A DNA stretch of 64,000 nucleotides, taken from the NCBI GenBank assembly GCA_965207945.1, contig OZ242303.1, forward strand, positions 61,199 to 125,198. The letters run 5' to 3'. The notes under the pieces were generated by a model, which searched no databases, was not told the DNA's origin, and worked only from the letters and a program-made list of their open reading frames with translations. The first letter of the stretch is position 1; each line of letters begins with the position of its first letter. This document shows, piece after piece, positions 42,647-64,000 of this stretch. The stretch comes from Gammaproteobacteria bacterium. GTDB taxonomy: Bacteria; Pseudomonadota; Gammaproteobacteria; CBDBNL01; JAAOII01. The position numbers were made by a program, and so were the translations under genes.

Positions 42647-45600
42647 ATGAGGGGAATTAATCAATCAAAGATTAGTCAATTAATGGCTAATACATTAAGG
42701 ATTAGTGCATCAAAACTTAATAGCAACAAGCTATTTTTACAAGCGTTGTTATTTAGCGTTGCGCTGCTTGGCGCCTGTAGTTTAGATGTAAGCGTGTCTG
42801 ATGGAGAAGACGTTGCTTCGGTTCCACCGCAGCAGCCACAACCACCAGAGCAGCCAGGTATCCCGCCAGAGTATAATCCCCAGGAGCGATTTCCTGACAG
42901 CATCATCTTTGATGCGGATGGAGATGGAATTGTTAATGCTTATGACTTTGCTCATCTTGATAGCAATGTTCAGGTTAGAGGCAGAGGCACCCTTGATAAT
43001 CCTTTTATTATTCGTAATATTTATCAGTTGCAAGCAATTGCTGGAGTTGACCATACAGGGGTTGTATTGGACTCATCAAAATTCACTGATAGCACTTGGC
43101 TTTATGGCAACAGCAGAAGAGGGCAGCTCGGTAAGGCATACACCCTTGACAACAATATAGACGCAGCGCCAACCCGCGACTGGAATCATTATAGGGTGCA
43201 CGGTGTCTCAGAGGGATTATATCCGATAGGCAATTGCGGCAGAGACAATATCTGTAATAGTTTTGATGATTTACCTTTTAGCGGTAGTTTTATTGCTTCC
43301 TCTTTTTCCATTAATAACTTATATATACTACAGTCGTTTTTAAATGGAGTCGGCTTGTTCGGCATGGTTGCGGAGGATGCAGTTGTCGCTTCCCTGCGCT
43401 TAATTGGATTTGAGGTTAGCGGTAATAATAAAGTTGGTGGTTTGGCTGGCTTTAACGAAGGAACGCTTGGGGATATTTATGCTTATGGGACAGTTAACAG
43501 CAGATCAGAAGCTGGCGGGTTAGTTGGTGTTAACCGCAAGGATATTATTAATTCTTATGTCGGTGGCATAACTAATGGCGTGGATGTCACAGGCGGAATG
43601 GTGGGGCGCAATCAAGGCAAGGTTGAACACTCATCTTCCGCTGCCATAGTGCATGGCGGATCTTTTTCTGGTGGGATGATTGGCGTCAATGATGCTACTG
43701 GATTAATTGATTATTCTTTTGCGTTAGGAAAGATTATCGCCACTTCCGTAGTTGGTGGATTAGTAGGCAGCAATAATGGCAAGACACTTAATTCTTATGC
43801 CAGCGGCAATATGCATGCCGATGAAGAGGTGGGCGGTTTAGTCGGTAATAATCAAGGTTCAGTGGTTAGTTCTTATGCCTCAGGGAATGTCATCGGCGAG
43901 ATAAGTGTAGGCGGTTTGGTTGGCATGGGTGAAGGTCTTATAGATTATTCTTATGCGCACGGCAGTGTTACAGGAGGTAAAAAAGTTGGCGGCTTGGTAG
44001 GTTTCCAAAACGCTCATTCAGGAATATCATCTTCATATTCTACAGGGGCGGTGACAGGCACCAGCTTTGTCGGTGGATTGGTGGGTTATAGCTTAGCGGA
44101 TGCTTCTTTTTCATCATACTGGGATATACAAAGTAGCGGGCAGACGCAAAGTTTTGGTGGCTCTGCAGTGCAGGGTGTTACCACAGAGCAATTGAAAAAC
44201 TGCGGCATCAATGGCATCAGAGTTAACGATAATTTAGCTGTTGACTGTTCTGACTTATTTCCAGGAGATCTGTGGGATAGTAGGGATAACTCCGATGGCT
44301 CATCAACCTTATGGGACTTCTCATCTTCACAACACTACCCGCTTCTTACAGTTGGAGGTAAAAAACCTGGACGGATTAGATTTAGTGGCAGCTCTAACTT
44401 GCTACCCAATGAGATTTGTTTTGATATTGACAATATACGAGGAACATGTGTGAATAATATCTATGTGTTGGATGCAATTCAAGGGCTGGAAGTTGGCAGG
44501 ATTCTCGTAGCAAATAATAAGAATGCTTATTCTAAATTCACCTATACTTTTGCTGATGCCGATGCTAATGCCGACACTGACGCCGATGATAGCACCAATA
44601 ATATTAACAGGAGCATCACAGAATTATTTGCCATTGACTCAGATAGCGGTGTTATTACTATGGTGCGCAATGCCACTGTTGATGATATTGCTGCGTATCA
44701 GATGACTATTATAGCCCGCCCACAGAATCAACTACCAGGAAGAGAAGTTGAGCGCAGGCAACTTGTGGTTGAGTTTACTGCAGAGCTCACCAATGGAGAG
44801 CCGTTCTTTGATAAGCAAGATTATTCTTTCTCCAATCTGCCTGGTTATTTTATTACCCCTCTCGTTATGGTTAGTGCTGTAGACCCAGAAGGAGGAGATA
44901 TCTTATATACACTGGATTCCCCAGCAGCAACTCTGTTTCAAATAAGCGACACCGGCATAATAACTCCACGTAGTAATCTTGCTGCGGGTAAATATACAAT
45001 TGAGGTTACTGCCACTGATGAGGCAGGAGTATCCACCAGTAAAATTGCGCTGCTATATATAGCGTATGAGGATGCAGATAGAGATTTAGTGGTGGACCAT
45101 TATGATGCATTCCCTAATGATGCCTCAAAGTTTTCAAATGGTACTGGCACTGCCGAAGACCCTTTTATTATTAGCAACATATATCAGTTACAGGCAATCT
45201 CAGGATTTGATCATACATATAAAATAATTTCAAAAGCCGATTCATTAACAGGCGGCAGCTGGCTGTATGGCACAAGTCGTCTGGAACAACTTAACAACCA
45301 TTATCAACTTGCCAATAATATAAACGCCACGATTACTCATACTTGGTCCCCACATATTGCGGACGGAACAGAGGTCTCACCCGAGAATACACTATCTGGG
45401 TTTATACCTATCGGTAATTGCATAACTAACAAATCTTTTTCATGCGATGCAGGTGATACACAATTCTCTGGTTCTTTTGATGGTCGCGGCAATAGCATCA
45501 ACAACTTGCATATTAATTCTACGCAGGGGGAAAGAATAGCCCTGTTTGGCTCGCTTGCCTCAAATGGCAGCATAACCTCAGTAGGACTTCAAAACGTTGA

Positions 45601-48933: not shown

Positions 48934-51690
48934 ATGCAAGCGGAGGTTATTAAAACAAGGGCTATTATGGCTGTCTTGTTGCTGGCAGCACTGTTCAGCG
49001 GCTGCAGTTCCAGCAGTAAATCAAACAGCAGTGGGGCGTCACAGAATCCAGCGCAGAGTCGCGGGGAAGCCAGGGAAGAGCTGGGGACGATAAAAGAACC
49101 GGCTTCAAGTGGCGAGATAAACAATGAATATAGTCCAGGCAGTGGGCGTCTTATTGTTAAGTTGGAAATTCTTGATAACTTAATTAGTTATGAGCAGGTA
49201 TCGTATGCGCGAGTCCATATAACTCCGCAGGACCTGACGGGCAAGGTGGGAGAATATTTATCGCTGCCAGAAGATTCCGCACCACAAGATGAGATTCCAC
49301 TTGACATTGATGCCTCGCTGGGCATTGATGTAGCGCTTAGCGTGGGGGATGAAAGCGCCCGTCTGGACTTTGGCTATGTTGCTTTTGGACGCTACATCCT
49401 CAATGCGACAATCTATCATAACAACGGCAGAGCTCTTGCTTATAGCGAATTACTTATTGATGTTGGCTTGGCGGACGATGTCCAAGTTGGCGACTCCCAA
49501 GTTGGCGACTCCCAGATTGACGACACCCAGATTGACGACACCCAAACAGGCGAAGCAGAAGTTCCAATAGAGTATATTCGTCCGAATCCTGATGCGACAG
49601 ATACCGCTTTAGCGGAATATACAGCTACACTCATTTTTGATTTATCTTCGGCTTTGTTTCGTCTGGTAACTCTGCCGTTAGTTTTTACTGATGATGATAA
49701 TGATGGACTACTGGATGTCTGGCATCCCGCCTATCTTGCAGCAATTGCTAATGACTTAGATGGCGGATTGGATGGCAGCTATGAACTGACAGAAGATATT
49801 GACTTATCTTCCTATGATAACCGGGGAAACTGGGACAACCGGGGAAACTGGCAGCCACTGGGCAGTGAAGAGCAGCCCTTTAGGGGAACTTTTGTTGGCA
49901 ATGGTCATAGCATTAGAGGTCTCTCCGTCAAGGGACATAGCAGAGCCGGCTTATTCGCCGCTTTAGATGGAGCGAGCGTAAGAGACCTGATGGTTGAGGT
50001 GTGGCAGATTAATGCATCTAACTATAATGATGCTTCATATAGCGCTGGTTTTGCGGGAGCTGTTGCGGGGCTTGCCACTCATAGTACTTTTGCCAACATT
50101 ACAGTTGAGATGAATTCTTATGACGATGAATCACCATACATAACTGCATTTGCACAAGATGGTGTAACTTATGTTGGTGGCTTGGTTGGCCGCGTCAGGA
50201 ATAGCGTCATAGATAACACAACAATTATGGCGAACGGCATAATATCAGCCATGTCATTGGGAGATGACTATAGGGCACGTTCTTACGTTGGTGGATTGGC
50301 TGGATTAGTTAATCTATTCAATGAAATTACAAATGTTGAAGTTGTTGGGGAAGTTGATTTGCTGGCGAGCAGCTTTGATGGGGTATCAATGGGTGGTCTG
50401 ATAGGGTCGCTAACAAGGAGTGAAGTTAGTGCGGCAAGGGTTGCACTTAGCGGCGACATAATATCTTATAGTGATAATAATTATTTATTATCTGGCGGCG
50501 CAGTGGGAGAATGCAGCAGCTCTCCTATTGTTGATATGAATATTTTTGTTGAAGGAAATATACTGGCGGAATCATCCGGGGGTGGTGGTGATGTCTATGT
50601 TGGCGGAGCTATTGGGGAAGCAGACCGTTGCAACATTATCAATTTAAAAACAGATACTTATGGGACCATTAGCACTACAGGCAGTTATGCGGATAGAACT
50701 TATTTTAGCACAGGAGGTTTAGTGGGTTTTAGTCAACGGACGGAAACTAATCATGTTACGGTTACGCATAATGGCGATTTGCTTTCATTGGGTGATTCTT
50801 GCTATGTTGGTGCTGTAGTGGGTTACTCCTATTATGAAATAATGAATAATGTATCCGCAACAATTAATGGCAATCTAATCGCTGGAGCACCTAATAGTGA
50901 AGTTGGTATTTCTTTTAATTGCCATGTCGGGGGTATACTCGGTTATTCAGAAAATCTTATTGTAAGCAATTCTTATGCCATAGTTAATGGAGATGTTCTC
51001 TCTTATGCTAATAATAACCCTGCTAAGGCGGGAGGAATTGTGGGGAAAAATGAGAAAGACATAGAAATTGATAACTCTTATGCATTGATTAAAGGCAACT
51101 TGGCTGCCACTTCATTTTTTGCGCCGACTTATATAGGCGGTTTGGTTGGCGACTCTGATGGTGAGCTGTTGATAGTCCATGATTCTTATGTTCAGATTTT
51201 AGGCAATATAACCCTGCGGAGTATTTTTTCTGAGGATGAAAATGTCTCTTCTGGTGGAAACTTTGTTGGCATAACAAAGGGAGCTTATTTTGCTAACTCT
51301 TATGTTTTTATTGGCGGCAAGGCATCTGCCATAAATATACCGGTGCTCGGCACTTCTTCACCAGCCGTCTTTGGCGGTGCCTGGGGTGAGACAAAGATGA
51401 CTAACAATGACCCATATAGTATAACGTTGAGCTCGTCTTATTATAGGTCGCAGCGCGAGTTAGGTGAGGGTGGTTTTAATAGCGCTGAAGTGGACGGTGA
51501 TGCGATTGATGTAGATCGCAGTGACTTGCAACTACGTTGCCCGCAAGCGGCGGGACAAAATTGCGGAGGAGCCGTAACGCCAGGCAATCCGCAAACTTAT
51601 GTCGGTTGGGATGAGAGCGTATGGGACTTTGGTGCGGCAGACGAACTGCCCAGATTAAGAGTTTTTCCAAGTACTAATTTATTGGATTGA
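48934..51690 (+). CDS. P4: GLUG-repeat surface lipoprotein (918 aa), a member of the near-identical paralog set P4-P8.
   Basis: The GGAGGATTAATTT-ATG ribosome-binding site and lipobox LFSGC are conserved. So are the N-terminal ~130-aa block (GRLIVKLEILDNLISYE…), the DDDNDGLLDVWHPAYLAAIA and NWQPLGSE(E)QPFRGTFVGNGHSI(R/S)GLS module, and the C-terminus QLRCPQAAGQNCGG…TPGNPQTYVGWDESVWDFGAADELPRLRVF. Confidence 0.8.
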   Translation: MQAEVIKTRAIMAVLLLAALFSGCSSSSKSNSSGASQNPAQSRGEAREELGTIKEPASSGEINNEYSPGSGRLIVKLEILDNLISYEQVSYARVHITPQDLTGKVGEYLSLPEDSAPQDEIPLDIDASLGIDVALSVGDESARLDFGYVAFGRYILNATIYHNNGRALAYSELLIDVGLADDVQVGDSQVGDSQIDDTQIDDTQTGEAEVPIEYIRPNPDATDTALAEYTATLIFDLSSALFRLVTLPLVFTDDDNDGLLDVWHPAYLAAIANDLDGGLDGSYELTEDIDLSSYDNRGNWDNRGNWQPLGSEEQPFRGTFVGNGHSIRGLSVKGHSRAGLFAALDGASVRDLMVEVWQINASNYNDASYSAGFAGAVAGLATHSTFANITVEMNSYDDESPYITAFAQDGVTYVGGLVGRVRNSVIDNTTIMANGIISAMSLGDDYRARSYVGGLAGLVNLFNEITNVEVVGEVDLLASSFDGVSMGGLIGSLTRSEVSAARVALSGDIISYSDNNYLLSGGAVGECSSSPIVDMNIFVEGNILAESSGGGGDVYVGGAIGEADRCNIINLKTDTYGTISTTGSYADRTYFSTGGLVGFSQRTETNHVTVTHNGDLLSLGDSCYVGAVVGYSYYEIMNNVSATINGNLIAGAPNSEVGISFNCHVGGILGYSENLIVSNSYAIVNGDVLSYANNNPAKAGGIVGKNEKDIEIDNSYALIKGNLAATSFFAPTYIGGLVGDSDGELLIVHDSYVQILGNITLRSIFSEDENVSSGGNFVGITKGAYFANSYVFIGGKASAINIPVLGTSSPAVFGGAWGETKMTNNDPYSITLSSSYYRSQRELGEGGFNSAEVDGDAIDVDRSDLQLRCPQAAGQNCGGAVTPGNPQTYVGWDESVWDFGAADELPRLRVFPSTNLLD
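49483..49555 (+). repeat. Internal 15-bp x~5 in-frame repeat in P4 (QVGDS QVGDS QIDDT QIDDT QTGEA). Shorter versions occur in P5 (~52273-52310) and P8 (~60511-60565).
   Basis: caagttggcgactcc and cagattgacgacacc units lie head to tail. Confidence 0.8.
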
Positions 51691-51715
51691 CATGATTAAC
51701 AGTGAGGATTAATTC

Positions 51716-54442
51716 ATGCAAGCGGAGGTTATGAAAGCAGGGGGGATTACAACAAAGGGGATTACAACAAGAACTGTTATAGTGTTTTTGTTGCTGGCAG
51801 TCCTGTTCAGTGGCTGCAGTTCTAGCAGCAACTCAGGTGGTGCAAAATCGCCAGGGACGCCACAGCAGCCAGAGCAGAGTCGCGGGGAAGCTAGAGGAGA
51901 AGCTGGCGCGGGGCAACAACCGACTTCAAGCCCAATTTCAAGCGGTGAGATAAACAATGAATATACTCCTGGTAGTGGTCGCCTTATTGTTAAGTTAGAT
52001 ATTCTTGATAACTTAATTAGTTATGAGTCAGTATCGTTTGCGCGAGTATATATAACTCCGCTGGGCATAGATGCTGCGCATGATATTGATGACTCGCTGG
52101 GCATAGATGCCTCGCTTAGCATTGATGTTGCGCTTGATGTGGGAGATGAAAGCGCCCGTCTGGATTTTGGTTATGTTGCTTTTGGACGGTATATCCTCAA
52201 CGCGACAATCTATCACAGCAACGGCAGTGCTCTTGCTTATAGCCAGTCACTTATTGATATTGGTTTGGCGGATGACACCCAAGTTGGCGACACTCAAACA
52301 GGCGAAGCAGAAATCCAAATAGAATATATTCGTCCGAGTCCTGATGCAACAGATCCCAACTTAGCGGAATATACTGCCACGCTCATTTTTGATTTATCTT
52401 CATCTTTATTTCGTCTGGTAACTCTGCCATTAGTTTTTACTGATGATGATAATGATGGACTACTGGATGTTTGGCATCCCGCATATCTTGCGGCAATTGC
52501 TGATGACTTGACTGGTAGTTATGAATTAACGGCAGATTTGGATTTATCCTACTATAACGGTTGGGGTAACTGGCAGCCGCTGGGTAGTGAAGCATTACCT
52601 TTTAGCGGAACTTTTGTCGGCAATGGTCATAGCATTAGCGGACTCTCTAGCAAGGGATATAACAAAGCTGGCTTATTCGCCGTTGTAGAAGGAGCGAGCA
52701 TAACCGACCTTATAGTTGAGGCGTGGCAGATTAATGCATCGGACTATTACTATTCAAACGGTAATTTAAACGGAGATTTAAATGGGGCTTCTTATGCTGG
52801 CGTTGTTGCAGGTCTTGCCCGTTCCAGCACTTTTGCCAACATCACAGTTGTGATGAATTCTTATGACGATGAATCACCATATATAACTGCGTTGGCGCAA
52901 GATGGCGCAACTTATGTTGGTGGTTTGGTTGGTCGCGCCAGCAATAGCATTATAGCTAACACAACAATTGTGGCGAGTGGCATAATATCAGCCAATGCCT
53001 GGGGGAATAATAGTAGAGCGAAATCTTATGCTGGTGGGCTGGCAGGGTTGGTTGATGAAGGCAGTGAAGTTATGAATGTTGCGGTTACTGGGGAAGTTGA
53101 TGTGCGGGCGGACGGATTAACTGAAGCATTATCAGGCAATAAGTATGCTGGCGGTTTGTTAGGTAGAATAAATGATAGCAGAATAAGCGCGGTGAAAGTT
53201 GAGCTTAGTGGCGACATAATAGTTGATAATGGCAATTATTTATCAGCGGGCGGTGCAGTGGGCAACTGCAGGCACTCTTCCGTTGTTGATATGAATATTA
53301 TTATTGCTGGCAATATATTGGCGGAGTATTCTGGCAGGAATAACGATGCGGCTGCTGCTGGAGTACTTGGTGAGGTATTTCGTTGTGACATTACTAATGT
53401 AGTAAGCAAGTTCTTCGGTTTAATCAGCGCTGAAGGTTATGGTTATGTGACTGCAGGAGGGTTAATGGGATATGCTGAATATACGGCAATCAGCAATGTT
53501 AAGGTTACCCACCATGGCGATTTACTCTCATCAGGTGATTATTGCTACGTTGGCGGTTTAGCAGCTTACCACTCTTCATCTACTGCTCCCATACATAATT
53601 CATCCGCAATAATTAATGGCAATATAATTGCGGGGGTACCTAATAGTGAAGTCGGAGTTTACCTTGATTGCGAAGCTGGAGGGATGATTGGTTATTTATC
53701 TGGAGGCACTATTAATAGTTCTTATGCCATAGTTAATGGAGATGTTCGCTCTTATTCTAGTGGTAAACCTTCTGAGGTGGGAGGATTTGTGGGGAGTGGC
53801 ACTGGTGAACTAAAAATTGAGAAATCTTATGCATTGATTAAAGGTAACTTGGTTGCCTCTTCATTTTTTGCGCCAACTTATGTTGGCGGTGTAGTCGGCA
53901 TCTCTTATGGTTCGTTGGTGACAGTCCGCGATTCTTATGTTCATATTTTAGGCAATATAACCCTGCGGAGTATTTTGTCTGAGGATGACGCCATTTCTTA
54001 TGGTGGCAATTTTATCGGCAGAGTAAAGGGAGCTAATTTTGCTAACACTTATGTTTTTATTGGTGGCACGGCATCTGCCATAAATATACCAGAGATCGGT
54101 ACTTCCTCGCCGGCTATCTTTGGCGGCGTTTGGGGTGCTATTTCAAAGAGGACTGCCAATGAATCGCATAATATCACATTTAGCTCTTCTTATTATAGAT
54201 CGCAGCGCGAGCCAAGGGAGGGTGATTTTAACAGCGCTGATGTGGGCGGCGATGCAATTGATGCGGCTCGTAGTGATTTGCAACTACGTTGTCCGCAAGC
54301 GGCGGGACAAAATTGTGGCGGACTCATAACACCAGGCAACCCACAAACTTATGTCGGTTGGGATGAGAACGTATGGGACTTTGGTGCGACGGACGAGCTG
54401 CCCAGATTAAGAGTTTTTCCAAGTACTAATTTATTGGATTGA
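51716..54442 (+). CDS. P5: GLUG-repeat surface lipoprotein (908 aa), paralog of P4.
   Basis: It has the same conserved 5' and 3' blocks and ribosome-binding site as P4, with a divergent central repeat region. Confidence 0.8.
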   Translation: MQAEVMKAGGITTKGITTRTVIVFLLLAVLFSGCSSSSNSGGAKSPGTPQQPEQSRGEARGEAGAGQQPTSSPISSGEINNEYTPGSGRLIVKLDILDNLISYESVSFARVYITPLGIDAAHDIDDSLGIDASLSIDVALDVGDESARLDFGYVAFGRYILNATIYHSNGSALAYSQSLIDIGLADDTQVGDTQTGEAEIQIEYIRPSPDATDPNLAEYTATLIFDLSSSLFRLVTLPLVFTDDDNDGLLDVWHPAYLAAIADDLTGSYELTADLDLSYYNGWGNWQPLGSEALPFSGTFVGNGHSISGLSSKGYNKAGLFAVVEGASITDLIVEAWQINASDYYYSNGNLNGDLNGASYAGVVAGLARSSTFANITVVMNSYDDESPYITALAQDGATYVGGLVGRASNSIIANTTIVASGIISANAWGNNSRAKSYAGGLAGLVDEGSEVMNVAVTGEVDVRADGLTEALSGNKYAGGLLGRINDSRISAVKVELSGDIIVDNGNYLSAGGAVGNCRHSSVVDMNIIIAGNILAEYSGRNNDAAAAGVLGEVFRCDITNVVSKFFGLISAEGYGYVTAGGLMGYAEYTAISNVKVTHHGDLLSSGDYCYVGGLAAYHSSSTAPIHNSSAIINGNIIAGVPNSEVGVYLDCEAGGMIGYLSGGTINSSYAIVNGDVRSYSSGKPSEVGGFVGSGTGELKIEKSYALIKGNLVASSFFAPTYVGGVVGISYGSLVTVRDSYVHILGNITLRSILSEDDAISYGGNFIGRVKGANFANTYVFIGGTASAINIPEIGTSSPAIFGGVWGAISKRTANESHNITFSSSYYRSQREPREGDFNSADVGGDAIDAARSDLQLRCPQAAGQNCGGLITPGNPQTYVGWDENVWDFGATDELPRLRVFPSTNLLD

Positions 54443-54467
54443 TATGATTAGCGGAGAGGATTAATTT

Positions 54468-57170
54468 ATGCCAGCGGGGGTTATGAAAGCAGGAGGGATT
54501 CAAACAGAGAGGATTCAAATCGGGGAGATTCAAACAGGGGGAATTCAAACAGAGAGGATTAAAACAAGGGCTGTTATAGTGTTTATGTTGTTGGCAGTTC
54601 TGTTGCTGACAGCACTGTTCAGCGGCTGCAGTTCCAGCAGCAACTCAGGTGGTGCAAAATCGCCAGGGACGCCACAGCAGCCAGAGCAGAGTCGCGGTGA
54701 AGCGGGAGGAGAAGCTGGCGCGGGACAACAACCGACTTTAAGCCCAATTTCAAGAGGAGTAATAAACAATGAATATACTCCTGGTAGTGGTCGTCTTATT
54801 GTTAAGTTAGAGATTCTTGATAACTTAATTAGTTATGAGTCAGTGTCGTTTGCGCGAGTATATATAACTCCACTGGGCATAGATGCTGCGCAGGATATTG
54901 ATGCCTCGCTTAGCATTGATGTTGCGCTTCGCTTGGGGGATGAAAGTGCCCGTCTGGATTTTGGTTATGTTGCTTTTGGACGCTATCTCCTCAATGCGAC
55001 AATCTATCATAACAACGGCAGTGCTCTTGCTTATAGTGAATTGTTTATTGATGAGACAGATCCCAGCTTAGCGGAGTATACAGCTACGCTCGTTTTTGAT
55101 TTATCTTCGTCTTTGTTTCGTCTGGTAACTCTGCCATTAGCTTTTACTGATGATGATAATGATGGACTACTGGATGTTTGGCATCCCGCCTATCTTGCAG
55201 CAATTGCTGGCGACTTGACTGGTAGTTATGAATTAACGGCAGACCTGGACTTATCCTCCTGGGGCAACTGGCAGCCGCTGGGCAGTAGAGTTCAGCCCTT
55301 TGAAGGAATTTTTGTTGGCAACGGTCATCGCATCAGCGGTCTCTCCAGTCGGGGATATAGCAGCGCCGGCTTATTCGGTGTTGTGGAAGGAGCAAGCATA
55401 ACAGACCTGATGGTTGAGGTGTGGCAGATTAATACATCGGGCTATTATTCTTTAAATGGACATTTTTTAAGCAGTAATTCAAGCAGTAATTCAAGCAGTG
55501 ATTCAAGCGGTGCTTCTTATGCTGGTGCTGTTGCGGGAGCTGTTGTAGGTTTGGCACGTTCTAGTATTCTTGCCAACATCACAGTTATGATGAGTTCTTA
55601 TAATAATGAATTGCCATATATAACTGCATTTGGGCAAAATGAAGCAACTTATGTTGGCGGCTTGGTTGGTCACGCCAGCAATAGCACAATAGCAAACACA
55701 ACAATTATGGCAGCAGGACTAATATCGGGAGCTTCATCAATAGTTAAAAGTTATGCCAAAACTAATGTTGGTGGTTTGGCGGGGTTCGTTGATAATGGTA
55801 GTGATATTATAAATGTTGCGGTTACAGGTAAAGCGGATGTGCAGGCAGGTGGACTCCTTAATGTATTGTCAGGCAATTATATATCTGGCGGACTGTTAGG
55901 GAGAATAAGGCATAGCAGAATGAGAGAGGTAAGAGTTGCACTTAGCAGTGACATAACAACCTATAATGGTAAATTTTTATCAACCGGCGGCGCAGTGGGC
56001 GAATGCTTCAGGTCTTCTGTTGTTGATATAAATATTGTTGTTGCTGGCGATATACTAGCGGAGCATCCGCTCACTAATGGATATGCGTATGCTGGCGGAG
56101 TACTTGGCGAAGCTTATGAGTGCGGCATTACTAATGTAGTAAGTGAGACGTTCGGCTTAATCAGTGCTGTAAGTTCCAGTTTTACGTCTGCAGGAGGGCT
56201 AGTGGGTTATGCCGAATATGTGACAATCAGCAATATTAGGGTTGCCCATCATGGTGATGCATTCTCATCGGGTAAGTATTGCAACGTCGGTGGTTTAATG
56301 GGTTACTACTCTTTTTTAGATGATGAATCCATAAATAATACATCCACAATAATTAATGGCAATCTAATTGCCGGGAAGGATAATAATCCAGCAAGAATTC
56401 ACTTTAATTGCCAGATAGGAGGGATGATTGGTTATTTGGAAGGCGGCGCCATTAATAATTCTTATGCCATAGTTAGTGGAGATGTTCAATTATATTCTAA
56501 TGGAGAGAATGTTGCGGTGGGAGGAATGGTGGGGCGCAGTGCAACAGACATATTGGAGATTACGAATTCTTATGCATTGATTAAAGGCAACTTGGCTGCC
56601 GTTTCATTTTTTGCGCCGGCTTATGCTGGTGGTTTGGTTGGCATCTCTGAGGATAAATTTATGACAGTCCGCAATTCTTATGTTCAAATTTTAGGCAATA
56701 TTACTCTGCGGAGTATTTTGCCAGAGGATGATGCCATCTCTTATGGTGGCAATTTTATTGGATTAGTGGAAAGAGCTAGCGGCAGTTTCACTAACACTTA
56801 TGTTTTTGTTGGCGGCGCGATATCATCTATTCGTGATTCCTTGCCGGCTATCTTTGGCGGCACTCGGGGGAGTATTAGTACTGCCAAAGAATCGCATAAT
56901 ATCACATTTAGCTCGTCTTATTATAGGTCGCAACGCGAGCTAAGCGAGGGTGATTTTAACAGCGCTGAAGTGGGTGGCTATATAACTGATGTGGCTCGCA
57001 GTGATTTGCAACTACGTTGTCCGCAAGCGGCGGGACAAAACTGCGGCGGACCTGTAATGCCGGGTAATCCGAAAACTTATGTTGGTTGGGATGAGAGTGT
57101 ATGGGACTTTGGTGCGGTGGACGAGCTGCCCAGATTACGAGTTTTTTCTCTAATCAATATATTGGATTAA
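54468..57170 (+). CDS. P6: GLUG-repeat surface lipoprotein (900 aa), paralog of P4.
   Basis: It has the same conserved blocks. The signal-peptide n-region carries 5 copies of the 15-bp pentapeptide repeat (GIQTE RIQIG EIQTG GIQTE RIKTR). Confidence 0.8.
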   Translation: MPAGVMKAGGIQTERIQIGEIQTGGIQTERIKTRAVIVFMLLAVLLLTALFSGCSSSSNSGGAKSPGTPQQPEQSRGEAGGEAGAGQQPTLSPISRGVINNEYTPGSGRLIVKLEILDNLISYESVSFARVYITPLGIDAAQDIDASLSIDVALRLGDESARLDFGYVAFGRYLLNATIYHNNGSALAYSELFIDETDPSLAEYTATLVFDLSSSLFRLVTLPLAFTDDDNDGLLDVWHPAYLAAIAGDLTGSYELTADLDLSSWGNWQPLGSRVQPFEGIFVGNGHRISGLSSRGYSSAGLFGVVEGASITDLMVEVWQINTSGYYSLNGHFLSSNSSSNSSSDSSGASYAGAVAGAVVGLARSSILANITVMMSSYNNELPYITAFGQNEATYVGGLVGHASNSTIANTTIMAAGLISGASSIVKSYAKTNVGGLAGFVDNGSDIINVAVTGKADVQAGGLLNVLSGNYISGGLLGRIRHSRMREVRVALSSDITTYNGKFLSTGGAVGECFRSSVVDINIVVAGDILAEHPLTNGYAYAGGVLGEAYECGITNVVSETFGLISAVSSSFTSAGGLVGYAEYVTISNIRVAHHGDAFSSGKYCNVGGLMGYYSFLDDESINNTSTIINGNLIAGKDNNPARIHFNCQIGGMIGYLEGGAINNSYAIVSGDVQLYSNGENVAVGGMVGRSATDILEITNSYALIKGNLAAVSFFAPAYAGGLVGISEDKFMTVRNSYVQILGNITLRSILPEDDAISYGGNFIGLVERASGSFTNTYVFVGGAISSIRDSLPAIFGGTRGSISTAKESHNITFSSSYYRSQRELSEGDFNSAEVGGYITDVARSDLQLRCPQAAGQNCGGPVMPGNPKTYVGWDESVWDFGAVDELPRLRVFSLINILD
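54492..54566 (+). repeat. A 15-bp tandem repeat of 5 copies in the 5' coding end of P6. The same repeat family is present in 2 copies at 51740-51769 (P5), 4 copies at 57205-57264 (P7), 5 copies at 59955-60029 (P8) and 1 degenerate copy in P4.
   Basis: The unit is (g/a)(g/a)gg(g/a)gatt(c/a)aaaca. It is in-frame and encodes the pentapeptide G-I-(K/Q/T)-T-x in the signal-peptide n-region. Confidence 0.85.
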
Positions 57171-57195
57171 TATAATTAACGGAGAGGATTAATTT

Positions 57196-59907
57196 ATGCA
57201 AGCAGGGGGGATTAAAACCGGGGGGATTAAAATAGAGAGGATTAAAATAAAGATTATTAAAACAAGAGCTGTGATAGTGTTTTTGTTGTTGGCGGTTCTG
57301 TTGATGACAGCGCTGTTTAGTGGCTGCAGTTCCAGTGTCAACTCAAATAGTAGCGATACTACACAGAATCCAGAGCAGAGTCGCGGGGAAAGCAGAGAAG
57401 AACTGGGAGAAGAATCTGGAGCAGTAGAACAACCAAATTCAAGCCCAATTTCAAGAGGAGTAATAAATAATGAATATAGCCCAGGCAGTGGCCGTCTTAT
57501 TGTTAAGTTGGATATTCTTGATAACTTAATTAGTTATGAGTCGGTATCGTTTGCGCGAGTCCATATAACTCCGCTTGACATTGATGCTGCGCTGGGCATA
57601 GATGCTGTGCAGGGCATTGATGTTTCGCTTGGCATAGATGCTGTGCAGGGCATTGATGTTTCGCTTGGCATAGATGTTGCGCTTCGTGTGGGCGATGAAA
57701 GCGCTCGTCTGGACTTTGGCTATGTTGCTTTTGGACGCTACTTCCTCAATGCGACAATCTATCATAGCAACGGCAACGCTCTTGCTTATAGTGAATTACT
57801 GATTGATGCAACAGACCCCAGTTTAGCGGAATATACAGCAACGCTCGTTTTTGATTCATCTTCGGCTTTGTTTCGTCTGGTAACTCTGCCACTTGTTTTC
57901 AATGATTATGATAATGATGGACTACTGGATGTTTGGCATCCCGCCTACCTTGCGGTAATTGCTAGCGACTTAGATGGCAATTATGAATTGACGGCAGATT
58001 TGGATTTATCCTCCTATTCTAACTGGCAGCCACTGGGCAGTGAAGATCAGCCCTTTAGAGGAACTTTTGTTGGCAATGGTCATCGCCTCAGTGGTTTATC
58101 CAGCAAGGGATATATGAATGCCGGCTTATTCGGTGTTGTGGAAGGAGCAAGCATAACAGACCTAATAGTTGAGGCGTGGCAGATTAGTTCCTTGGACTAT
58201 GATAACTCCAATGCAGGCGCTATTGCGGGGTTAGCCCGTTCCAGCACTTTTGCAAATATCACAGTTGTGATGAGTTCTTATGACGATGAATTATCTTATA
58301 TAACTGCGGTTTCTCAAGATGATACCGTTAGTGCAGGCGGTTTGTTTGGTCGCTTCAGAAATAGCACTATAGCTAACGCAAAGATTATGGCAGCAGGACT
58401 AATATCAGGAATTTCATCAAAAGTTGAAGGTTCTGCCAAAGTTTATGTAGGCGGCTTGGCAGGATATGTTTATAGGGGTAGTGATATCATAAATGCTGAG
58501 GTTATGGGTAAAGTGGATGTACAGGCAGGCGGTATCTTTGGAAATTCAACGGGCGATTATAAATCTGGCGGACTGATAGGGAGAATTAGTCGTAGCCGAC
58601 TTAGAGAGACAAAAATTATGCTTAGCGGAAACATAACAACTCATAATGGAGATTATCTAACATCTGGCGGCGCGATGGCTAAATGCGGGAGTTCTTCTGT
58701 AGTTGATATGGATATTGTTATTGTTGGCAATATACTGGCGGAAAATCCCACCATTAAAGATAGCGTCCTTGCCGCTGGAGTTATTGGTGAGAACAGTAAT
58801 TGTAGTATAAATAATGTAACGGCAGAAATATTTGGTTCAATAAGAGCCACCTCCACTTATGCTAAGTATGCGTTTTCTGGAGGGGTACAGGCAGGAGGGG
58901 AAAATAAATACGTTACTGATGTAACTCAAATTAGTGATATTATGGTTACAGTTCATGGTGATGTGCTTTCTTCAGGAAAGAAATGCGCTTCTGGGGGTTT
59001 GGGAGGAAACCAGAATAACAACATTAATATAAATAATTCGTCTGTAACTATTTATGGCGATATAATTGCTGGAAATCTTATAGAGGGAGACACTTATTTT
59101 ACTTGTAGTGGTGGAGGAATATTCGGCTCATTAAGTGGAGGAGTTATTAATAATTCTTATGCCATAGTTAATGGGGATGTTCGCTCTTATGCTAATGGAA
59201 GAACTTCTAAGGCGGGAGGCATGGTGGGCGTTAATATCTATCCATTAGAGATTATGAATTCTTATGCATTGATTAAAGGTAATTTAGATGCTACTGCATT
59301 TATTAAGCCAGTTTATGTTGGTGGCTTTGTTGGCAACTCTTATGGTTCACTATTTGTAGAGCGCAATGATTATGTCTCGTCGTTAGGCGTTCGTGATTCT
59401 TATGTTCAGGTTTTAGGCAATATGACCCTGCGGAGTATTTTGCCCGAGGATAATGCCCTCTCTTATGGCGGCAACTTTATTGGTGTAGGACAGACAAGCA
59501 TTTTCACCAACACTTATGCTTTTGTTGGTGGCACGATATCAGCTATTATTGATTCCACACCAGCCACTTTTGGCGGTATCCAGGGGCGTATTATAGATGG
59601 GAGTTTCGTAAAGGCGGCACGCGATGAACTACATAATATTTCATTAACCTCATCCTATTATAGGGGGGAGAGAGATCTAAGTGAGGATAACTTTAATAGC
59701 GCTGATGCTGACGGGGATGCAGTTTCTGCAGCGCGTAGTGATTTGCAACTGCGTTGTCCGCAAGCAGCGGGACAAAACTGCGGCGGACCTGTAATGCCTG
59801 GCAATCCGCAAACTTATGTCGGTTGGGATGAGAGCGTATGGAACTTTGGTACGCCAGACGAGCTTCCCAGATTACGTATTTTTTCAAACATTAATATATT
59901 GAATTAA
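57196..59907 (+). CDS. P7: GLUG-repeat surface lipoprotein (903 aa), paralog of P4.
   Basis: It has the same conserved blocks, 4 N-terminal pentapeptide repeats, and an internal 36-bp x2 repeat (GIDAVQGIDVSL). Confidence 0.8.
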   Translation: MQAGGIKTGGIKIERIKIKIIKTRAVIVFLLLAVLLMTALFSGCSSSVNSNSSDTTQNPEQSRGESREELGEESGAVEQPNSSPISRGVINNEYSPGSGRLIVKLDILDNLISYESVSFARVHITPLDIDAALGIDAVQGIDVSLGIDAVQGIDVSLGIDVALRVGDESARLDFGYVAFGRYFLNATIYHSNGNALAYSELLIDATDPSLAEYTATLVFDSSSALFRLVTLPLVFNDYDNDGLLDVWHPAYLAVIASDLDGNYELTADLDLSSYSNWQPLGSEDQPFRGTFVGNGHRLSGLSSKGYMNAGLFGVVEGASITDLIVEAWQISSLDYDNSNAGAIAGLARSSTFANITVVMSSYDDELSYITAVSQDDTVSAGGLFGRFRNSTIANAKIMAAGLISGISSKVEGSAKVYVGGLAGYVYRGSDIINAEVMGKVDVQAGGIFGNSTGDYKSGGLIGRISRSRLRETKIMLSGNITTHNGDYLTSGGAMAKCGSSSVVDMDIVIVGNILAENPTIKDSVLAAGVIGENSNCSINNVTAEIFGSIRATSTYAKYAFSGGVQAGGENKYVTDVTQISDIMVTVHGDVLSSGKKCASGGLGGNQNNNININNSSVTIYGDIIAGNLIEGDTYFTCSGGGIFGSLSGGVINNSYAIVNGDVRSYANGRTSKAGGMVGVNIYPLEIMNSYALIKGNLDATAFIKPVYVGGFVGNSYGSLFVERNDYVSSLGVRDSYVQVLGNMTLRSILPEDNALSYGGNFIGVGQTSIFTNTYAFVGGTISAIIDSTPATFGGIQGRIIDGSFVKAARDELHNISLTSSYYRGERDLSEDNFNSADADGDAVSAARSDLQLRCPQAAGQNCGGPVMPGNPQTYVGWDESVWNFGTPDELPRLRIFSNINILN
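57580..57690 (+). repeat. Internal 18/36-bp in-frame repeats in P7 (GIDAVQ GIDVSL x2 plus flanking LGIDAA/LGIDVAL units).
   Basis: ggcatagatgctgtgcagggcattgatgtttcgctt is duplicated exactly. Confidence 0.8.
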
Positions 59908-59945
59908 TATATTGAATTAATATAATTAAAAGAGAGAATAAATTT

Positions 59946-62678
59946 ATGCGAGCCGGGGGGATTAAAACAAAGGGGATTAAAACAAAGGGGGATAAAACAG
60001 AGATGATTAAAACAGGGGGGATTAAAATAAAGGGGGCTATTATAGCTGCCTTGTTGCTGGCAGCGCTGTTTAGCGGCTGCAGTTCCAGTGTCAACTCAAA
60101 CAGTAGCGATCCGCCACAGAACCCAGAGCAGAGTCGCGGGGAAGGCAGGGAAGAACTGGGAGCAGAATCTGGAGCAGTGGAACAACCAAATTCAAGAGGA
60201 GCGATAAACAATGAATATAGTCCGGGCAATGGGCGTCTTATTGTTAAGTTGGAGATACTTGATAACTTAATTAGTTATGAGTCGGTATCGTTTGTGCGAG
60301 TAGATATAACTCCTCAGAGCATAGATGCTGTGCAGGGCATTGATGCCTCGCTTAGCATTGATGTTGCGCTTCGCGTGGGGGATGAGAGTGCCCGTCTGGA
60401 TTTCGGCTATGTCGCTTTTGGACGCTACCTCCTTAATGGGACAATCTATCATGGCAACGGCAACGCTCTTGCTTATAGTGAATTGCTTATTGATGTTGGT
60501 TTGGAGGACGACCCCCAGATGGACAACATCCAAATCGGCGTCGCCCAAACGGGAGAAACAGAAATACCAATAGAATATATTCGCCCGAATACTGATGCAA
60601 CAGATCCCGCTTTAGCAGAGTATACAGCCACGCTCGTTTTTGACTCATCTTCTGCTTTGTTTCGTTTTGCAACTCTGCCACTTATTTTCACTGATGATGA
60701 TAATGATGGACTACTGGATGTTTGGCATCCCGCCTACCTTGCAGCAATTGATGGCGACTTAGATGACAGTTATGAATTGACGGCAGATTTGGATTTATCC
60801 TCCTGGGGCAACTGGCAGCCACTGGGTGATGATGCACAGCCCTTTAGAGGAATTCTTATCGGCAATGGTCATCGTATCAGCGGTCTCTCCAGTAAGGGGT
60901 ATAGCAGCGCTGGCTTATTCGGTGTTGTGGAAGGAGCGAGCATAACAGACCTGATAGTTGAGGCGAGGCATATTAATGCATCGGGCGGGTATTTAAATGA
61001 AATTTTAAACAATGCTAGTTTTGCGGGAGCTGTTGCGGGGCTTGCTCGTTCCAGCACTTTTGCGAACATCACAGTTGTGATGAGTTCTTATGACGATGAA
61101 TCGCCCTACATAACCGCATTTTCTCAGGATGGTGTATCTCATGCCGGCGGTTTAGTTGGTCGTGCCAGCAATAGCACCATAGCCAATACAACGATTGCGG
61201 CAAGCGGCATAATATCAGTTACCTCTTGGGGGGATAACTTTTATTTAGAATCTTATGCTGGTGGACTTGCGGGGTTGGTTGATGAGGGCAGTAGAATTAT
61301 GAATATTACGGTTACCGGGGAAGTTGATGTGCTAGCAAATGGTATAAGTGAAGCATCACCAGGCGACCGTATCTCAGGCGGCTTAATAGGGGTGATAGAT
61401 GAAAGCCAAATTAGCGCAGCAAGGGTTATGATTAGCGGAAATATAAAAACTGATAATGGTGAATATTTATCATCTGGTGGTGGAATGGGTTCTTGTGGCA
61501 GTTCTTCTATTACTGACGTGAATATTGTTATTGTCGGAAATATACTGGCGGATAATTTTGTATCTGGTGATACCTTAGCTTCTGGCGGAGCTATTGGCGG
61601 GATTAGCAGTTGCACCATAACCGATATAAAGGTAGAAATATTTGGTTCAATAAGAACTATCACTGATTATTATGCTTATGCCTTTTCTGGGGGGCTATAT
61701 GGATACATTGTTGATGGTTCTCAAATTAGTAATATCAAGGTTACAGTTCATGGTGATGTATTTTCTTCTGGAGGGGAATGCGCTTCCGGGGGGATGGGGG
61801 GATACCAGGGTAGCAATATCAATATGAATAATTTGTCCGCAACTATTTATGGCGATATAATTGCTGGGGAGTTTATAGAGAACGATATTATTATTGCCTG
61901 TAATGGTGGGGGGATGCTTGGTGAATCACGAGGAGGCGTTATTAATAGTTCGTCCGCCATAGTTAAAGGAGATGTTCTATCTTATTCTAACGGGGATTCT
62001 GCTGAGGCAGGAGGAATGGTGGGACGCAATACAGCCCCATTGGAGATTATGAACTCTTATGCATTGATTACTGGAGATTTAGTTGCTACTTCATTTCTTG
62101 CATCTTCTTATGCTGGTGGTTTTATTAGCAGCTCTTATAGTCGGACTGGTATAACGAGGAATAATCTTCTTTTTAATAGGGATTCTATAGTAACGGTAGG
62201 CAATTCTTATGTTCATATTTTAGGCAATATAACCTTGCGCAGTATTTTGCCTGAGGATGACGCTGTCTCTTCTGGCGGCAATTTCATTGGCAGAGGACGG
62301 CTAAGCAGTTTTACTAATACTTATGTTTTTGTTGGCGGCACTATATCAGCCATTCGCGATTCCTTGCCAGCTATCTTTGGCGGTTCTTGGGGGACGATAG
62401 GAGGGGTTGCAGTTGACTCTTACAATATCACGCTAACCTCATCCCATTATAGGGGCGAGAGGGAGCTAAGCGAGGATGACTTTAATAGCGCTGATGCTGC
62501 TGGAGATGAAATTGCTGCGGCACGTAGTGATTTGCAACTGCGTTGTCCGCAAGCGGCAGGACAAAATTGCGGCGGAGATATAACTCCAGGCAATCCGCAA
62601 ACTTATGTCGGTTGGGATGAAAAGATATGGGATTTTGGCACGGTAGACGATCTGCCCAGATTAAGAATTTTTCAATAA
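59946..62678 (+). CDS. P8: GLUG-repeat surface lipoprotein (910 aa), paralog of P4.
   Basis: It has the same conserved blocks and 5 N-terminal pentapeptide repeats (GIKTK GIKTK GDKTE MIKTG GIKIK). Confidence 0.8.
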   Translation: MRAGGIKTKGIKTKGDKTEMIKTGGIKIKGAIIAALLLAALFSGCSSSVNSNSSDPPQNPEQSRGEGREELGAESGAVEQPNSRGAINNEYSPGNGRLIVKLEILDNLISYESVSFVRVDITPQSIDAVQGIDASLSIDVALRVGDESARLDFGYVAFGRYLLNGTIYHGNGNALAYSELLIDVGLEDDPQMDNIQIGVAQTGETEIPIEYIRPNTDATDPALAEYTATLVFDSSSALFRFATLPLIFTDDDNDGLLDVWHPAYLAAIDGDLDDSYELTADLDLSSWGNWQPLGDDAQPFRGILIGNGHRISGLSSKGYSSAGLFGVVEGASITDLIVEARHINASGGYLNEILNNASFAGAVAGLARSSTFANITVVMSSYDDESPYITAFSQDGVSHAGGLVGRASNSTIANTTIAASGIISVTSWGDNFYLESYAGGLAGLVDEGSRIMNITVTGEVDVLANGISEASPGDRISGGLIGVIDESQISAARVMISGNIKTDNGEYLSSGGGMGSCGSSSITDVNIVIVGNILADNFVSGDTLASGGAIGGISSCTITDIKVEIFGSIRTITDYYAYAFSGGLYGYIVDGSQISNIKVTVHGDVFSSGGECASGGMGGYQGSNINMNNLSATIYGDIIAGEFIENDIIIACNGGGMLGESRGGVINSSSAIVKGDVLSYSNGDSAEAGGMVGRNTAPLEIMNSYALITGDLVATSFLASSYAGGFISSSYSRTGITRNNLLFNRDSIVTVGNSYVHILGNITLRSILPEDDAVSSGGNFIGRGRLSSFTNTYVFVGGTISAIRDSLPAIFGGSWGTIGGVAVDSYNITLTSSHYRGERELSEDDFNSADAAGDEIAAARSDLQLRCPQAAGQNCGGDITPGNPQTYVGWDEKIWDFGTVDDLPRLRIFQ

Positions 62679-62723
62679 TATTGATATTATTGTATTAATA
62701 TAATCAATGGAGAGGATTAATTT

Positions 62724-64000
62724 ATGAAGTGGGGGCTTCTTATATCTGCGCTATTATTGGCTATGGCTACGACTAGCTGTAACAGAACTGAATATGTGAA
62801 TGATAGACAATTAGAGAATGAGCAAGGCATAGAACAACCGGTAGAAGAACAACCGGTAGAAGAACAACCGGGAGAAGAACAACCACCGAAGGAAGAAAAA
62901 CCACCGAAGGAAGAAAAACCACCGAAGGAAAAACCACCGAAGGAAGAAAAACCACCGAAGGAAGAAAAACCACCAAAGGAAAAACCACCAAAGGAAAAAC
63001 AACCGAAGGAAAAACAACCGAAGGAAGAACCACCGAAAGAAAAAAAACCGAAGGAAAAACCACCGAAAGAAAAAAAACCGAAAGATAAATGCCTGGATGT
63101 GGGAACAACAGATAAAGATAAAAATTTAAATAGCACATTAATTGATGGCGATGGAAACGGCTTATTGGATATTTGGAATCATCTGCAGCTTGCTGCAGTT
63201 TCCCATAATCTTACTGGTAATTATGAGTTGAAAAATCATATATCTTTATCGTCTTGCGCCAACGCTAACTGGCAGCCGTTAGGTAATGACACTATTCCAT
63301 TTAGTGGTGTCCTTGTTGGCAACGACTATGGCATAAGCAACTTAGTTAGCAAGGGCTATCGCAGCGGTGGATTATTTGGAGTTATACAAGATGCGACAAT
63401 AAGTAATCTCATAATTGATGTAAAGCATATTAACTCAACCCAATATTCTGGCTCTCTTACGGGGTTGGCTAATTCTGGTGTGCTTGAGAATATTACAGTT
63501 CGCCTGCTTTCTTCCACAGATGAGATGCCTCATATAACGGCGGTTGCTTCATCTGGCGTGGCGAATGCTGGTGGTTTAATTGGCGGAGCTAACAATATCA
63601 TCATCAATAACGCAACAATTATAGCGGCAGATAGCACAATCTCTGCTTATGCTATTGATAATAACACATCAAAAGAAGCGTATGCTGGCGGATTGGTGGG
63701 GATGCTTAACCGCGGCACTGTAACCAATACCGCGGTCATGGGTGAAGTTAATGTACTGGCGTACGCGTTAGAGTATTCAGTTTCTAAAGCCCATGCTGGT
63801 GGTTTAGTAGGAGACGTAAGAAGAAGCAAGTTAATAGATACCCGAATTGAGATTAGTGGAGATGTAATAAGTAGTAGCAAAGATTTAGTGTCGTCTGGCG
63901 GGGTGGTGGGAAATTGTTTTCATTCCCCCTTTGATGGCATGGATATAATTTTCAAAGGGAGTGTATTAGTAGTGGAGCAGAAATATTCTAATATAGCTGC
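62724..64000 (+). CDS. P9: GLUG-repeat surface lipoprotein, 3'-partial (runs off the window), with a Pro/Lys/Glu-rich (PKEEK) linker.
   Basis: An ATG at 62724 follows GGAGGATTAATTT and the lipobox is ATTSC. The (E)EQPVEEQP…PPKEEKPPKEEK… repeats are followed by DGDGNGLLDIWNHLQLAAV…NWQPLGNDTIPFSGVLVGN…GGLIG/GGLVG repeats. The ORF track omits it because no stop occurs before the window ends. Confidence 0.75.
   Translation, partial: MKWGLLISALLLAMATTSCNRTEYVNDRQLENEQGIEQPVEEQPVEEQPGEEQPPKEEKPPKEEKPPKEKPPKEEKPPKEEKPPKEKPPKEKQPKEKQPKEEPPKEKKPKEKPPKEKKPKDKCLDVGTTDKDKNLNSTLIDGDGNGLLDIWNHLQLAAVSHNLTGNYELKNHISLSSCANANWQPLGNDTIPFSGVLVGNDYGISNLVSKGYRSGGLFGVIQDATISNLIIDVKHINSTQYSGSLTGLANSGVLENITVRLLSSTDEMPHITAVASSGVANAGGLIGGANNIIINNATIIAADSTISAYAIDNNTSKEAYAGGLVGMLNRGTVTNTAVMGEVNVLAYALEYSVSKAHAGGLVGDVRRSKLIDTRIEISGDVISSSKDLVSSGGVVGNCFHSPFDGMDIIFKGSVLVVEQKYSNIA
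62832..63085 (+). repeat. Coding microsatellite-like repeats of 12-18-bp units encoding EEQPV/PPKEEK/KPPKEK in the P9 N-terminal linker.
   Basis: aaccggtagaagaac, ccaccgaaggaagaaaaa and ccaccgaaggaaaaa units recur directly in the sequence. Confidence 0.85.

Follow-up and report, generated by a model that had tools for sequence, protein, structure and literature searches.

In-frame mini-repeats and length polymorphism in the N-terminal third of tandem GLUG-motif lipoproteins from an uncultured gammaproteobacterial lineage

An interesting question is why a row of neighboring paralogous genes should carry so many short in-frame repeats, and whether these mark one hypervariable position or several. 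The window analyzed here is a 64,000-nucleotide stretch of contig OZ242303.1 (assembly GCA_965207945.1, positions 61,199 to 125,198, forward strand) from an uncultured gammaproteobacterium. Between 40451 and 62678 on its forward strand lie eight consecutive GLUG-motif genes, which we label P1-P8, and our subject is the mini-repeats in the last five of these, P4-P8. These five genes encode proteins of 900-918 amino acids (aa) with pairwise identities of 61-72%, and 85-95% across paralogs in the N-terminal part. They are separated by spacers of 25-38 bp, and each gene has a Shine-Dalgarno (SD)-like sequence and an ATG of its own. The repeats are non-random, their copy number differs by whole units between orthologs in related genomes, and the variation is confined to the N-terminal portion of the proteins. 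We put at roughly three in four the probability that slippage has generated this in-frame length polymorphism, in N-terminal segments where the GLUG lipoproteins are permissive, accompanied by loss of one loop across microhomology and by some gene conversion.

Codon-level reading of P4-P8 found the repeats named in the initial annotation where it had placed them (Table 1). Its units were right for P4 and P7 and for the shorter versions that P5 and P8 carry at the P4 position, while the P6 unit, given there as a 15-bp SSNSS, is a 12-bp SSNS in 3.3 copies. Rows from Tandem Repeats Finder (TRF) at a score of 30 or more were not discriminating, with approximately 1.2 per kb in 38000-64000 versus approximately 1.0 per kb in 1-38000. 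Since the low-score TRF density is similar across the window, we relied on a stricter, codon-shuffle-controlled count of tandem duplications with units of 12-60 nt and at least 90% identity. This count found 7 tandem-duplicated regions in P4-P8; over 200 codon shuffles the mean was 0.06 and no shuffle gave more than 1. Every unit of the counted duplications is a multiple of 3. In the site B array of P4, the two QVGDS units are identical in DNA, as are the two QIDDT units. Such identity or near-identity of adjacent units suggests recent duplication.

Table 1. Coordinates of the genes, repeat arrays and other features in the window, with the alignment sites of P4-P8 and their lengths among orthologs
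Feature	Position	Strand	Description	Lengths among orthologs (aa)
P4	48934-51690	+	918-aa GLUG-motif lipoprotein; lipobox LFSGC at aa 20-24; SD-like GGGAGGA 5' of ATG	
P5	51716-54442	+	908-aa paralog	
P6	54468-57170	+	900-aa paralog	
P7	57196-59907	+	903-aa paralog	
P8	59946-62678	+	910-aa paralog	
P4 site B	49483-49557	+	15-bp units: QVGDS x2 (CAA GTT GGC GAC TCC), QIDDT x2 (CAG ATT GAC GAC ACC), degenerate fifth unit QTGEA; TRF period 15, 4.3 copies	
P4 site C	49756-49779	+	12-bp duplication LDGG/LDGS	
P4 site D	49816-49851	+	18-bp duplication DNRGNW x2, 17/18 nt identical, just before WQPLG	
P5 n-region	51742-51770	+	15-bp units (GGITTK); TRF	
P5 site A	52059-52127	+	18-bp (G/S)IDxxL units, ~3.9 copies; TRF	
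P5 site B	52277-52306	+	short degenerate array TQVGD TQTGE	
P5 site E	52752-52782	+	12-bp units NGNL/NGDL; TRF	
P6 n-region	54496-54566	+	15-bp units, 4.7 copies; TRF	
P6 site B, short form	55044-55079	+	FIDETDPSLAEY; junction after loss of a loop of at least 87 bp	
P6 site E	55469-55508	+	12-bp unit SSNS, 3.3 copies; TRF and codon reading	
P7 n-region	57203-57262	+	15-bp units; TRF	
P7 site A	57572-57684	+	18-bp GIDxxx units, 6.3 copies (TRF), including a perfect 36-bp duplication, GIDAVQGIDVSL x2, at 57595-57666	
P7 site B, short form	57799-57834	+	LIDATDPSLAEY	
P8 n-region	59957-60035	+	15-bp units, 5.3 copies; TRF	
P8 site A	60337-60371	+	18-bp units, 1.9 copies; TRF	
P8 site B	60513-60557	+	degenerate array PQMDN IQIGV AQTGE	
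Site 0			signal-peptide n-region; 15-bp GGIKT-type units	P4 19/24/29; P5 19/29/39; P6 34/39/49; P7 29/39/44/49; P8 40/45/50; always steps of 5
Site L			linker 3' of the lipobox	
Site A			ITP-(G/S)IDxxL units-GDESARLDFG; holds the P7 array, upstream of GDESARLDFG	mostly 15/21/27/39, steps of 6; some members with an alternative non-repeat insert
Site B			LLID-VGLADD(QxxDx)n QTGEAE..IEYIRPNPDA-TDP; holds the P4, P5 and P8 arrays	10 (segment absent)/39/44/49/54/59, steps of 5; one 53-aa form in a P8 ortholog
Site C			DLDG duplication; present in P4	+/-4 in P4 and P7; duplication in 3/6 P4 and 2/5 P7 orthologs
Site D			just before WQPLG, downstream of the DDDNDG loop; holds P4 DNRGNW	P4 5/8/14/17; P5 5/8
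Site E			after QINAS, at the solenoid start, ~60 residues beyond site D; holds the P6 SSNS and P5 NGNL/NGDL arrays	P6 33/37 (P0014 one unit fewer); P8 19/29
Ninth family gene	62723-64000	+	extends past the window end	
Ninth gene, repeat array	62831-63082		15-bp KEEKPP units	
P1 repeats	41615-42076		87/102-bp repeats	
P2 repeat	44551-44574		12-bp repeat (ANADTDAD)	
rpoD	4454-7117	+	887 aa; K/A/S/T/P-rich N-terminal extension of ~240 aa with small repeats	
purL	7260-11507	-	1415 aa	
purL repeat	8737-8899		in-frame 45-bp repeat, 3.6 copies, LLQTDTYKNTGADNS-type units	
DGQHR/DndB-like gene	12755-14071	+		
rpsA	29388-31394	-	668 aa; acidic C-terminal tail of ~110 aa	

Alignment of P4-P8 resolves seven sites, named 0, L, A, B, C, D and E, with six or seven indel-prone sites in each gene, all within the first ~370 codons. 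The initial annotation had assigned the repeats to a single shared linker that differs in length in every paralog. In the alignment, the repeats that it named are spread over four separate sites (A, B, D and E), and P6 and P7 are alike in lacking the whole site B segment. The linker was said to lie between a conserved N-terminal block and a Ca-binding-like loop, a description that suits site B alone, where ~30 conserved residues still intervene before that loop, and not the other sites. The Ca-binding label itself finds no backing, as FTDDDNDGLLD offers a motif resemblance only, and a Pfam search of the N-terminal stretch that includes the DDDNDG motif returned no family even at E-values up to 10.

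Is the copy number of these units variable between genomes? A protein search found just 23 close relatives, encoded on approximately 6 chromosome-sized contigs (1.29-2.24 Mb) and a few short contigs of uncultured gammaproteobacterial genomes; P0007, P0019, P0020 and P0013 are identical to P5, P6, P7 and P8 of the window, respectively. The relatives sort into five clean orthogroups, with 85-95% identity to the matching window paralog versus 61-72% between paralogs, and the gene order of the orthogroups is conserved among the related genomes. The five-gene array is therefore older than the divergence of these genomes. The GuaB protein has 76% identity to that of a metagenome-assembled genome labelled Candidatus Portiera sp., 58-73% to some metagenome proteins, and ~58% to those of other named relatives, indicating a deep-branching and fast-evolving lineage. 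The small genome and divergent GuaB are consistent with a host-associated lifestyle.

All five orthogroups show length steps of whole units (5, 6, 4 or 3 aa) at the repeat sites. The strain comparison proposed in the initial annotation thus revealed whole-unit copy-number differences at the same places in every orthogroup. Length hypervariability, as it had proposed, is borne out, though at six or seven sites per gene rather than at one additional site. At site A, the P5 orthologs have 21, 27 or 48 aa, and P7 has 39 aa in the window versus 15 or 21 aa in its orthologs, a genome-specific expansion. At site B, lengths of 10, 44, 49, 54 and 59 aa occur among P4 orthologs, one of which lacks the segment, and the P8 orthologs have 10, 44 or 53 aa. 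The whole segment is absent from 3 of 5 P5 orthologs, the long form is kept in a single P6 ortholog (P0012), and it is also kept by the four other orthologs of P7. At site D, (GNW)n units of 9 bp replace DNRGNW in the P4 of one genome. The C-terminal 541-560 aa, in contrast to these sites, are of near-constant length within each orthogroup, with only three small indels of 1-3 aa.

The finest comparison comes from two of the related genomes that belong to one ENA analysis and one sample, with contigs at 128x (circular) and 10x coverage. Their P4 genes are 97.2% identical in DNA and differ by exactly two indels, one of 30 bp (two 15-bp units) at site B and one of 27 bp (three GNW units) at site D. 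Across P4-P8 of this pair, each intragenic indel has a length divisible by 3, and apart from a single one of 3 bp they fall in the first ~320 codons. Elsewhere in the locus, these co-occurring genomes also differ by 36 bp at the place (L001 5517) equivalent to a D/A-rich 12-bp repeat in P2 of the window, and P1 contains repeats that correspond to whole GLUG modules. Repeat variability thus reaches other genes of the locus.

Site B varies not only by units but by presence or absence of the whole segment. The short form is found in all five orthogroups, with 10 of the 24 tabulated family members lacking a loop of at least 87 bp. The long form is bounded by a direct repeat of 4-7 nt, which is ATT GAT G ... 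ATT GAT G in one related locus (L005) and TGATG in the window. A deletion between the flanking copies would yield exactly the sequence of the short forms, ATT GAT G(AG/CA) ACA. The flanks of the short forms are specific to the orthogroup (IDVTDPA in P4, IDATDPA in P8, IDETDPS in P5), which indicates that the loop was lost in situ, independently and several times. The same flanks led us to reject a spread of the short form by conversion from P6 or P7.

P4-P8 each begin with a lysine-rich n-region, followed by a hydrophobic stretch and the lipobox LFSGC, all identified by pattern match; the same matching finds LLGAC in P2 and VLTSC in P3. By this pattern P4-P8 qualify as bacterial lipoproteins, and lipid anchoring is predicted. 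A ninth family gene, MKWGLLISALLLAMATTSC including the lipobox, starts downstream of P8; right after its lipid anchor come (EEQPV)x3 and ~13 of the KEEKPP units, and then DGDGNGLLDIW. P4, P5 and P6 match Pfam PF07581 (GLUG) with 47.5, 31.5 and 42.4 bits, above the gathering threshold of 20.5. P7 and P8 alone fall under this threshold, yet they are 61-72% identical to P4-P6 and contain 8-11 GG[LIMVFA]x[GA] motifs. An AlphaFold model of P4, built with a 28-sequence family alignment, has a confident beta-solenoid at residues ~280-800, where many 10-residue blocks have a predicted local distance difference test score (pLDDT) above 90; residues 1-279 are below 50 in the full-length run. A GLUG beta-helix is likewise known from the N-terminal region of the M26 IgA1 protease (PDB 6xja, 7uvl, 3n6z). 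Compared with PDB structures, the P4 model fits the folds of IgA1 protease chains and BACOVA_03286 best, with weak E-values of 7e-3 or worse. Matches to Peptidase_M26_N are all sub-threshold and fall on the GLUG region. A motif scan found no HExxH in P1-P8, and we rejected an identity as M26 IgA1-specific metalloproteases since this zinc-binding motif is missing.

The region that precedes the solenoid appears to be largely restricted to this lineage. In an exhaustive search of representatives among 1.84 billion proteins, a profile of the N-terminal region had full-length matches in only ~5, and a word-indexed search with the alignment of the N-terminal domain gave no match. The last ~50 profile positions, which span the DDDNDG motif through WQPLG, occur as many as 14 times in a single protein among large proteins that are probably of the GLUG type. 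Because this module recurs widely, site D lies in a widespread module that precedes the solenoid. In P4, the DNRGNW duplication of site D falls in a low-confidence stretch (pLDDT below 50 for residues 294-304) where the confident solenoid begins, and P3 has a long insertion at the site D point. In a low-confidence model of the N-terminal domain alone (mean pLDDT 45), site A separates strands 2 and 3 of a predicted six, and site B falls where strand 5 turns into strand 6, an arrangement only suggestive of loops. A literature search on the GLUG motif returned nothing relevant.

Genes with no place in this family provide a control. RpsA has EAK x3 in its acidic tail in the window versus x2 in close relatives, as well as a 3-aa ESA indel. 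RpoD orthologs with at least 90% identity range from 809 to 887 aa, leaving aside a 710-aa cluster member that starts at an internal Met matching window residue 178. All of the RpoD indels are in the first ~210 residues, within the N-terminal extension; among them are an N-terminal stretch of 66 aa that the window protein alone possesses and differing unit numbers in SASTSASK, TKPT, NKTG and DxKHK repeats. Since RpoD and RpsA vary in the same way as P4-P8, we expect a lineage-wide mutational tendency that shows wherever a protein tolerates it, and not a dedicated system. What distinguishes the paralogs is the number of their tolerant sites, not a mechanism of their own. PurL has an in-frame repeat as well, an unusual insertion in a housekeeping enzyme, and its 90% cluster has one member.

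These observations lead us to the following model. Each protein has a lipobox signal peptide, then a linker of low complexity, a small N-terminal domain restricted to the lineage and, last, a long GLUG beta-solenoid, and the mini-repeats are coding minisatellites (units of 9-36 bp in 2-6 copies) in permissive segments of the first ~370 residues. Whole units would be gained or lost through replication slippage or unequal pairing of adjacent identical units, and the entire site B loop would be excised by slippage across the 4-7 nt flanking microhomology, (T)TGATG. Only in-frame products would survive, so that loop and linker lengths would differ between the proteins of different genomes without on/off switching. 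DNA-identical adjacent units together with unit-step alleles are the signature of slipped-strand mispairing (PMC3899988). Frameshift phase variation was considered and rejected, as the units are 9, 12, 15, 18 or 36 bp, the indels are multiples of 3 and the open reading frames (ORFs) are open.

Several points weigh against slippage as a full account. The nearest neighbors of N-terminal regions are often in other orthogroups, and an identical 60-aa linker is shared by P0009, a P5 ortholog, and P0012, a P6 ortholog, from different genomes. Over the first ~300 codons, four-fold-site identity among the window paralogs is 57-86%, versus 41-65% in most of the core. Taken together, these patterns suggest that gene conversion contributes beside slippage. 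Some of the length differences at sites A and B are non-repeat inserts, such as a 22-27-aa QGLIGQ... form. The N-terminal fold is poorly predicted (pLDDT <50), which leaves "loop" a suggestive term. Slippage rather than recombination is what we infer, as is the rate of change; surface exposure of P4-P8 is likewise presumed, and any benefit to the cell would be a further step. As an observation on the same genes, four-fold-site identity is 71-85% in the last ~60 codons and the core has local peaks of up to 82%; this suggests that the gene ends and intergenic spacers of P4-P8 are under concerted evolution.

The cross-orthogroup neighbors, the shared linker and the four-fold-site identity of the N-terminal part would be expected if conversion among P4-P8, copying long and short forms and repeat blocks, were the main source of the length alleles. 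P0012 adds to this by having a region N2 that is 99% identical to the N2 of P5 orthologs, and the long non-repeat insert at site A is patchy among the P4, P5 and P8 groups. However, unit-step series occur inside single orthogroups (44/49/54/59 aa at P4 site B, and n-regions by 5), neighboring units are identical in DNA, and local duplication or deletion explains these more simply; the orthogroup-specific flanks of the site B short forms argue in the same direction. We therefore see conversion as a contributor that did not generate most of the unit-step alleles, a leading role for it being rather improbable. A functional reading, in which the repeats are modules whose copy number tunes activity (acidic QxDDT and GIDxxL units, for example, as metal-binding or spacer elements), could draw on units rich in D, Q, G and T near a DxDxDG motif and on the hexapeptide periodicity of GIDxxL. 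We regard it as very unlikely because the site B segment is dispensable in members of all five orthogroups, the unit sequences are poorly conserved among paralogs, and the region is without a Pfam match. Tandem repeats in general can mis-assemble (PMC6868369), and misassembly was the possible refutation raised in the initial annotation. For these arrays an assembly or sequencing artefact is extremely unlikely, as each is at most 113 bp and so shorter than any current read, approximately 7 independent assemblies, including the 128x circular contig, differ by whole in-frame units at homologous sites, and the reading frames remain open.

A question apart from mechanism is whether the variation is selected. 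Lengths of loops, linkers and signal peptides in five co-expressed lipoproteins, together with exchange of N-terminal modules, might make the cell surface more diverse in the face of a host, phage or predator. This would fit the concentration of six or seven variable sites per gene in lipoproteins, the repeated loss of the same loop in all five orthogroups, the mosaic of N-terminal modules across paralogs, the long array right behind the lipobox of the ninth gene, and the lifestyle suggested by the small genome and divergent GuaB; size variation by tandem repeats in the mycoplasma Vsa proteins is an established precedent (PMC6080569). Nevertheless, we think selected surface variation unlikely. 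The same unit-step variation is present in RpoD and RpsA, neither of them a surface protein, and no special mechanism is needed; short arrays of 2-6 copies predict modest mutation rates, there is no on/off component, and the orthogroups are stable and syntenic. A more elaborate version, quite unlikely in our judgment, would make the N-terminal third a combinatorial surface-variation module in a reduced-genome and probably host-associated gammaproteobacterium, built from six to seven sites in each gene whose lengths mutate independently, a tandem row of five to six paralogs, exchange of N-terminal segments between them and a recurrent excisable, microhomology-bounded loop of 29-49 aa. If true, the size variation known from mycoplasma lipoproteins would have a Gram-negative analogue that does without an on/off switch.

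We return to in-frame length polymorphism by slippage to compare it with known systems. In P4-P8, tandem in-frame units occur beyond chance and their copy number is polymorphic at the same locus between genomes, which makes them coding minisatellites, or variable-number tandem repeats (VNTRs). The serine-aspartate repeats of staphylococcal Sdr/Clf are coding minisatellites of cell-surface proteins (PMC3899988, PMC3324548). As in such surface-protein VNTRs, the units of P4-P8 are in frame, copy number varies between strains, and length rather than expression is affected, with slipped-strand mispairing the accepted mechanism. Unlike the staphylococcal repeats, which form a single long stalk array, P4-P8 have six to seven very short arrays of 2-6 units scattered in the N-terminal part, and the host is an uncultured gammaproteobacterium. 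Vsa of Mycoplasma pulmonis and Vlp of M. hyorhinis have long C-terminal arrays of up to ~60 units of 10-19 aa and are phase-variable through site-specific inversion or promoter repeats, one gene being expressed at a time (PMC6080569). P4-P8 resemble them as a clustered lipoprotein family with a conserved N-terminus and lipobox and in-frame repeats that give size variants. The short arrays of P4-P8, in contrast, lie in the N-terminal part, and most of the protein, the C-terminal 540 aa, is a conserved and non-variable beta-solenoid. No expression switch of the Vsa/Vlp type was seen at P4-P8, in an analysis that included no search aimed at invertible elements.

The n-region arrays of P5-P8 call to mind the Opa (P.II) proteins of Neisseria, in which 5-bp CTCTT repeats in the signal-peptide coding region shift the frame as their copy number changes, acting as an on/off switch (PMC3899988). 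Both are gene families with tandem repeats within the region encoding the signal peptide. The P5-P8 units, however, measure 15 bp and all observed alleles keep the frame, which sets them apart from contingency loci. The 15-bp units (GAGAGGATTAAAATA in P7, GGGGGGATTAAAACA in P8) closely resemble the SD sequence and spacer in the 40 nt just 5' of the start codons (gGAGAGGATTAAttt ATG), and the arrays put several SD-like motifs into the first codons. From this resemblance, the arrays may have originated by duplication of the ribosome-binding region into the ORF.

The mechanism proposed here is not new, and this is an ordinary kind of length variation, closest to the known coding minisatellites. 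Its value lies in a precise map of the length variation between genomes in a lineage-restricted lipoprotein family, nearly all of which falls at short in-frame repeats within the N-terminal third. The mapped sites can be used as strain-typing markers for an uncultured lineage, and they reveal where the protein can absorb indels. They also bring a caution, since the slippage-type variation of RpoD and RpsA and the PurL repeat indicate that repeat variability alone is no evidence of an adaptive variation system.

Two minor observations may be added. The P6 ortholog P0021 (791 aa; L001 15472-15911, OZ242292.1, in a 2.06-Mb genome) has lost 22 bp of the intergenic/SD region and 234 bp of the N-terminal domain, and may be a decaying copy. 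Elsewhere in the window lies a gene for a DGQHR/DndB-like protein, of a family associated with DNA sulfur modification or defence.

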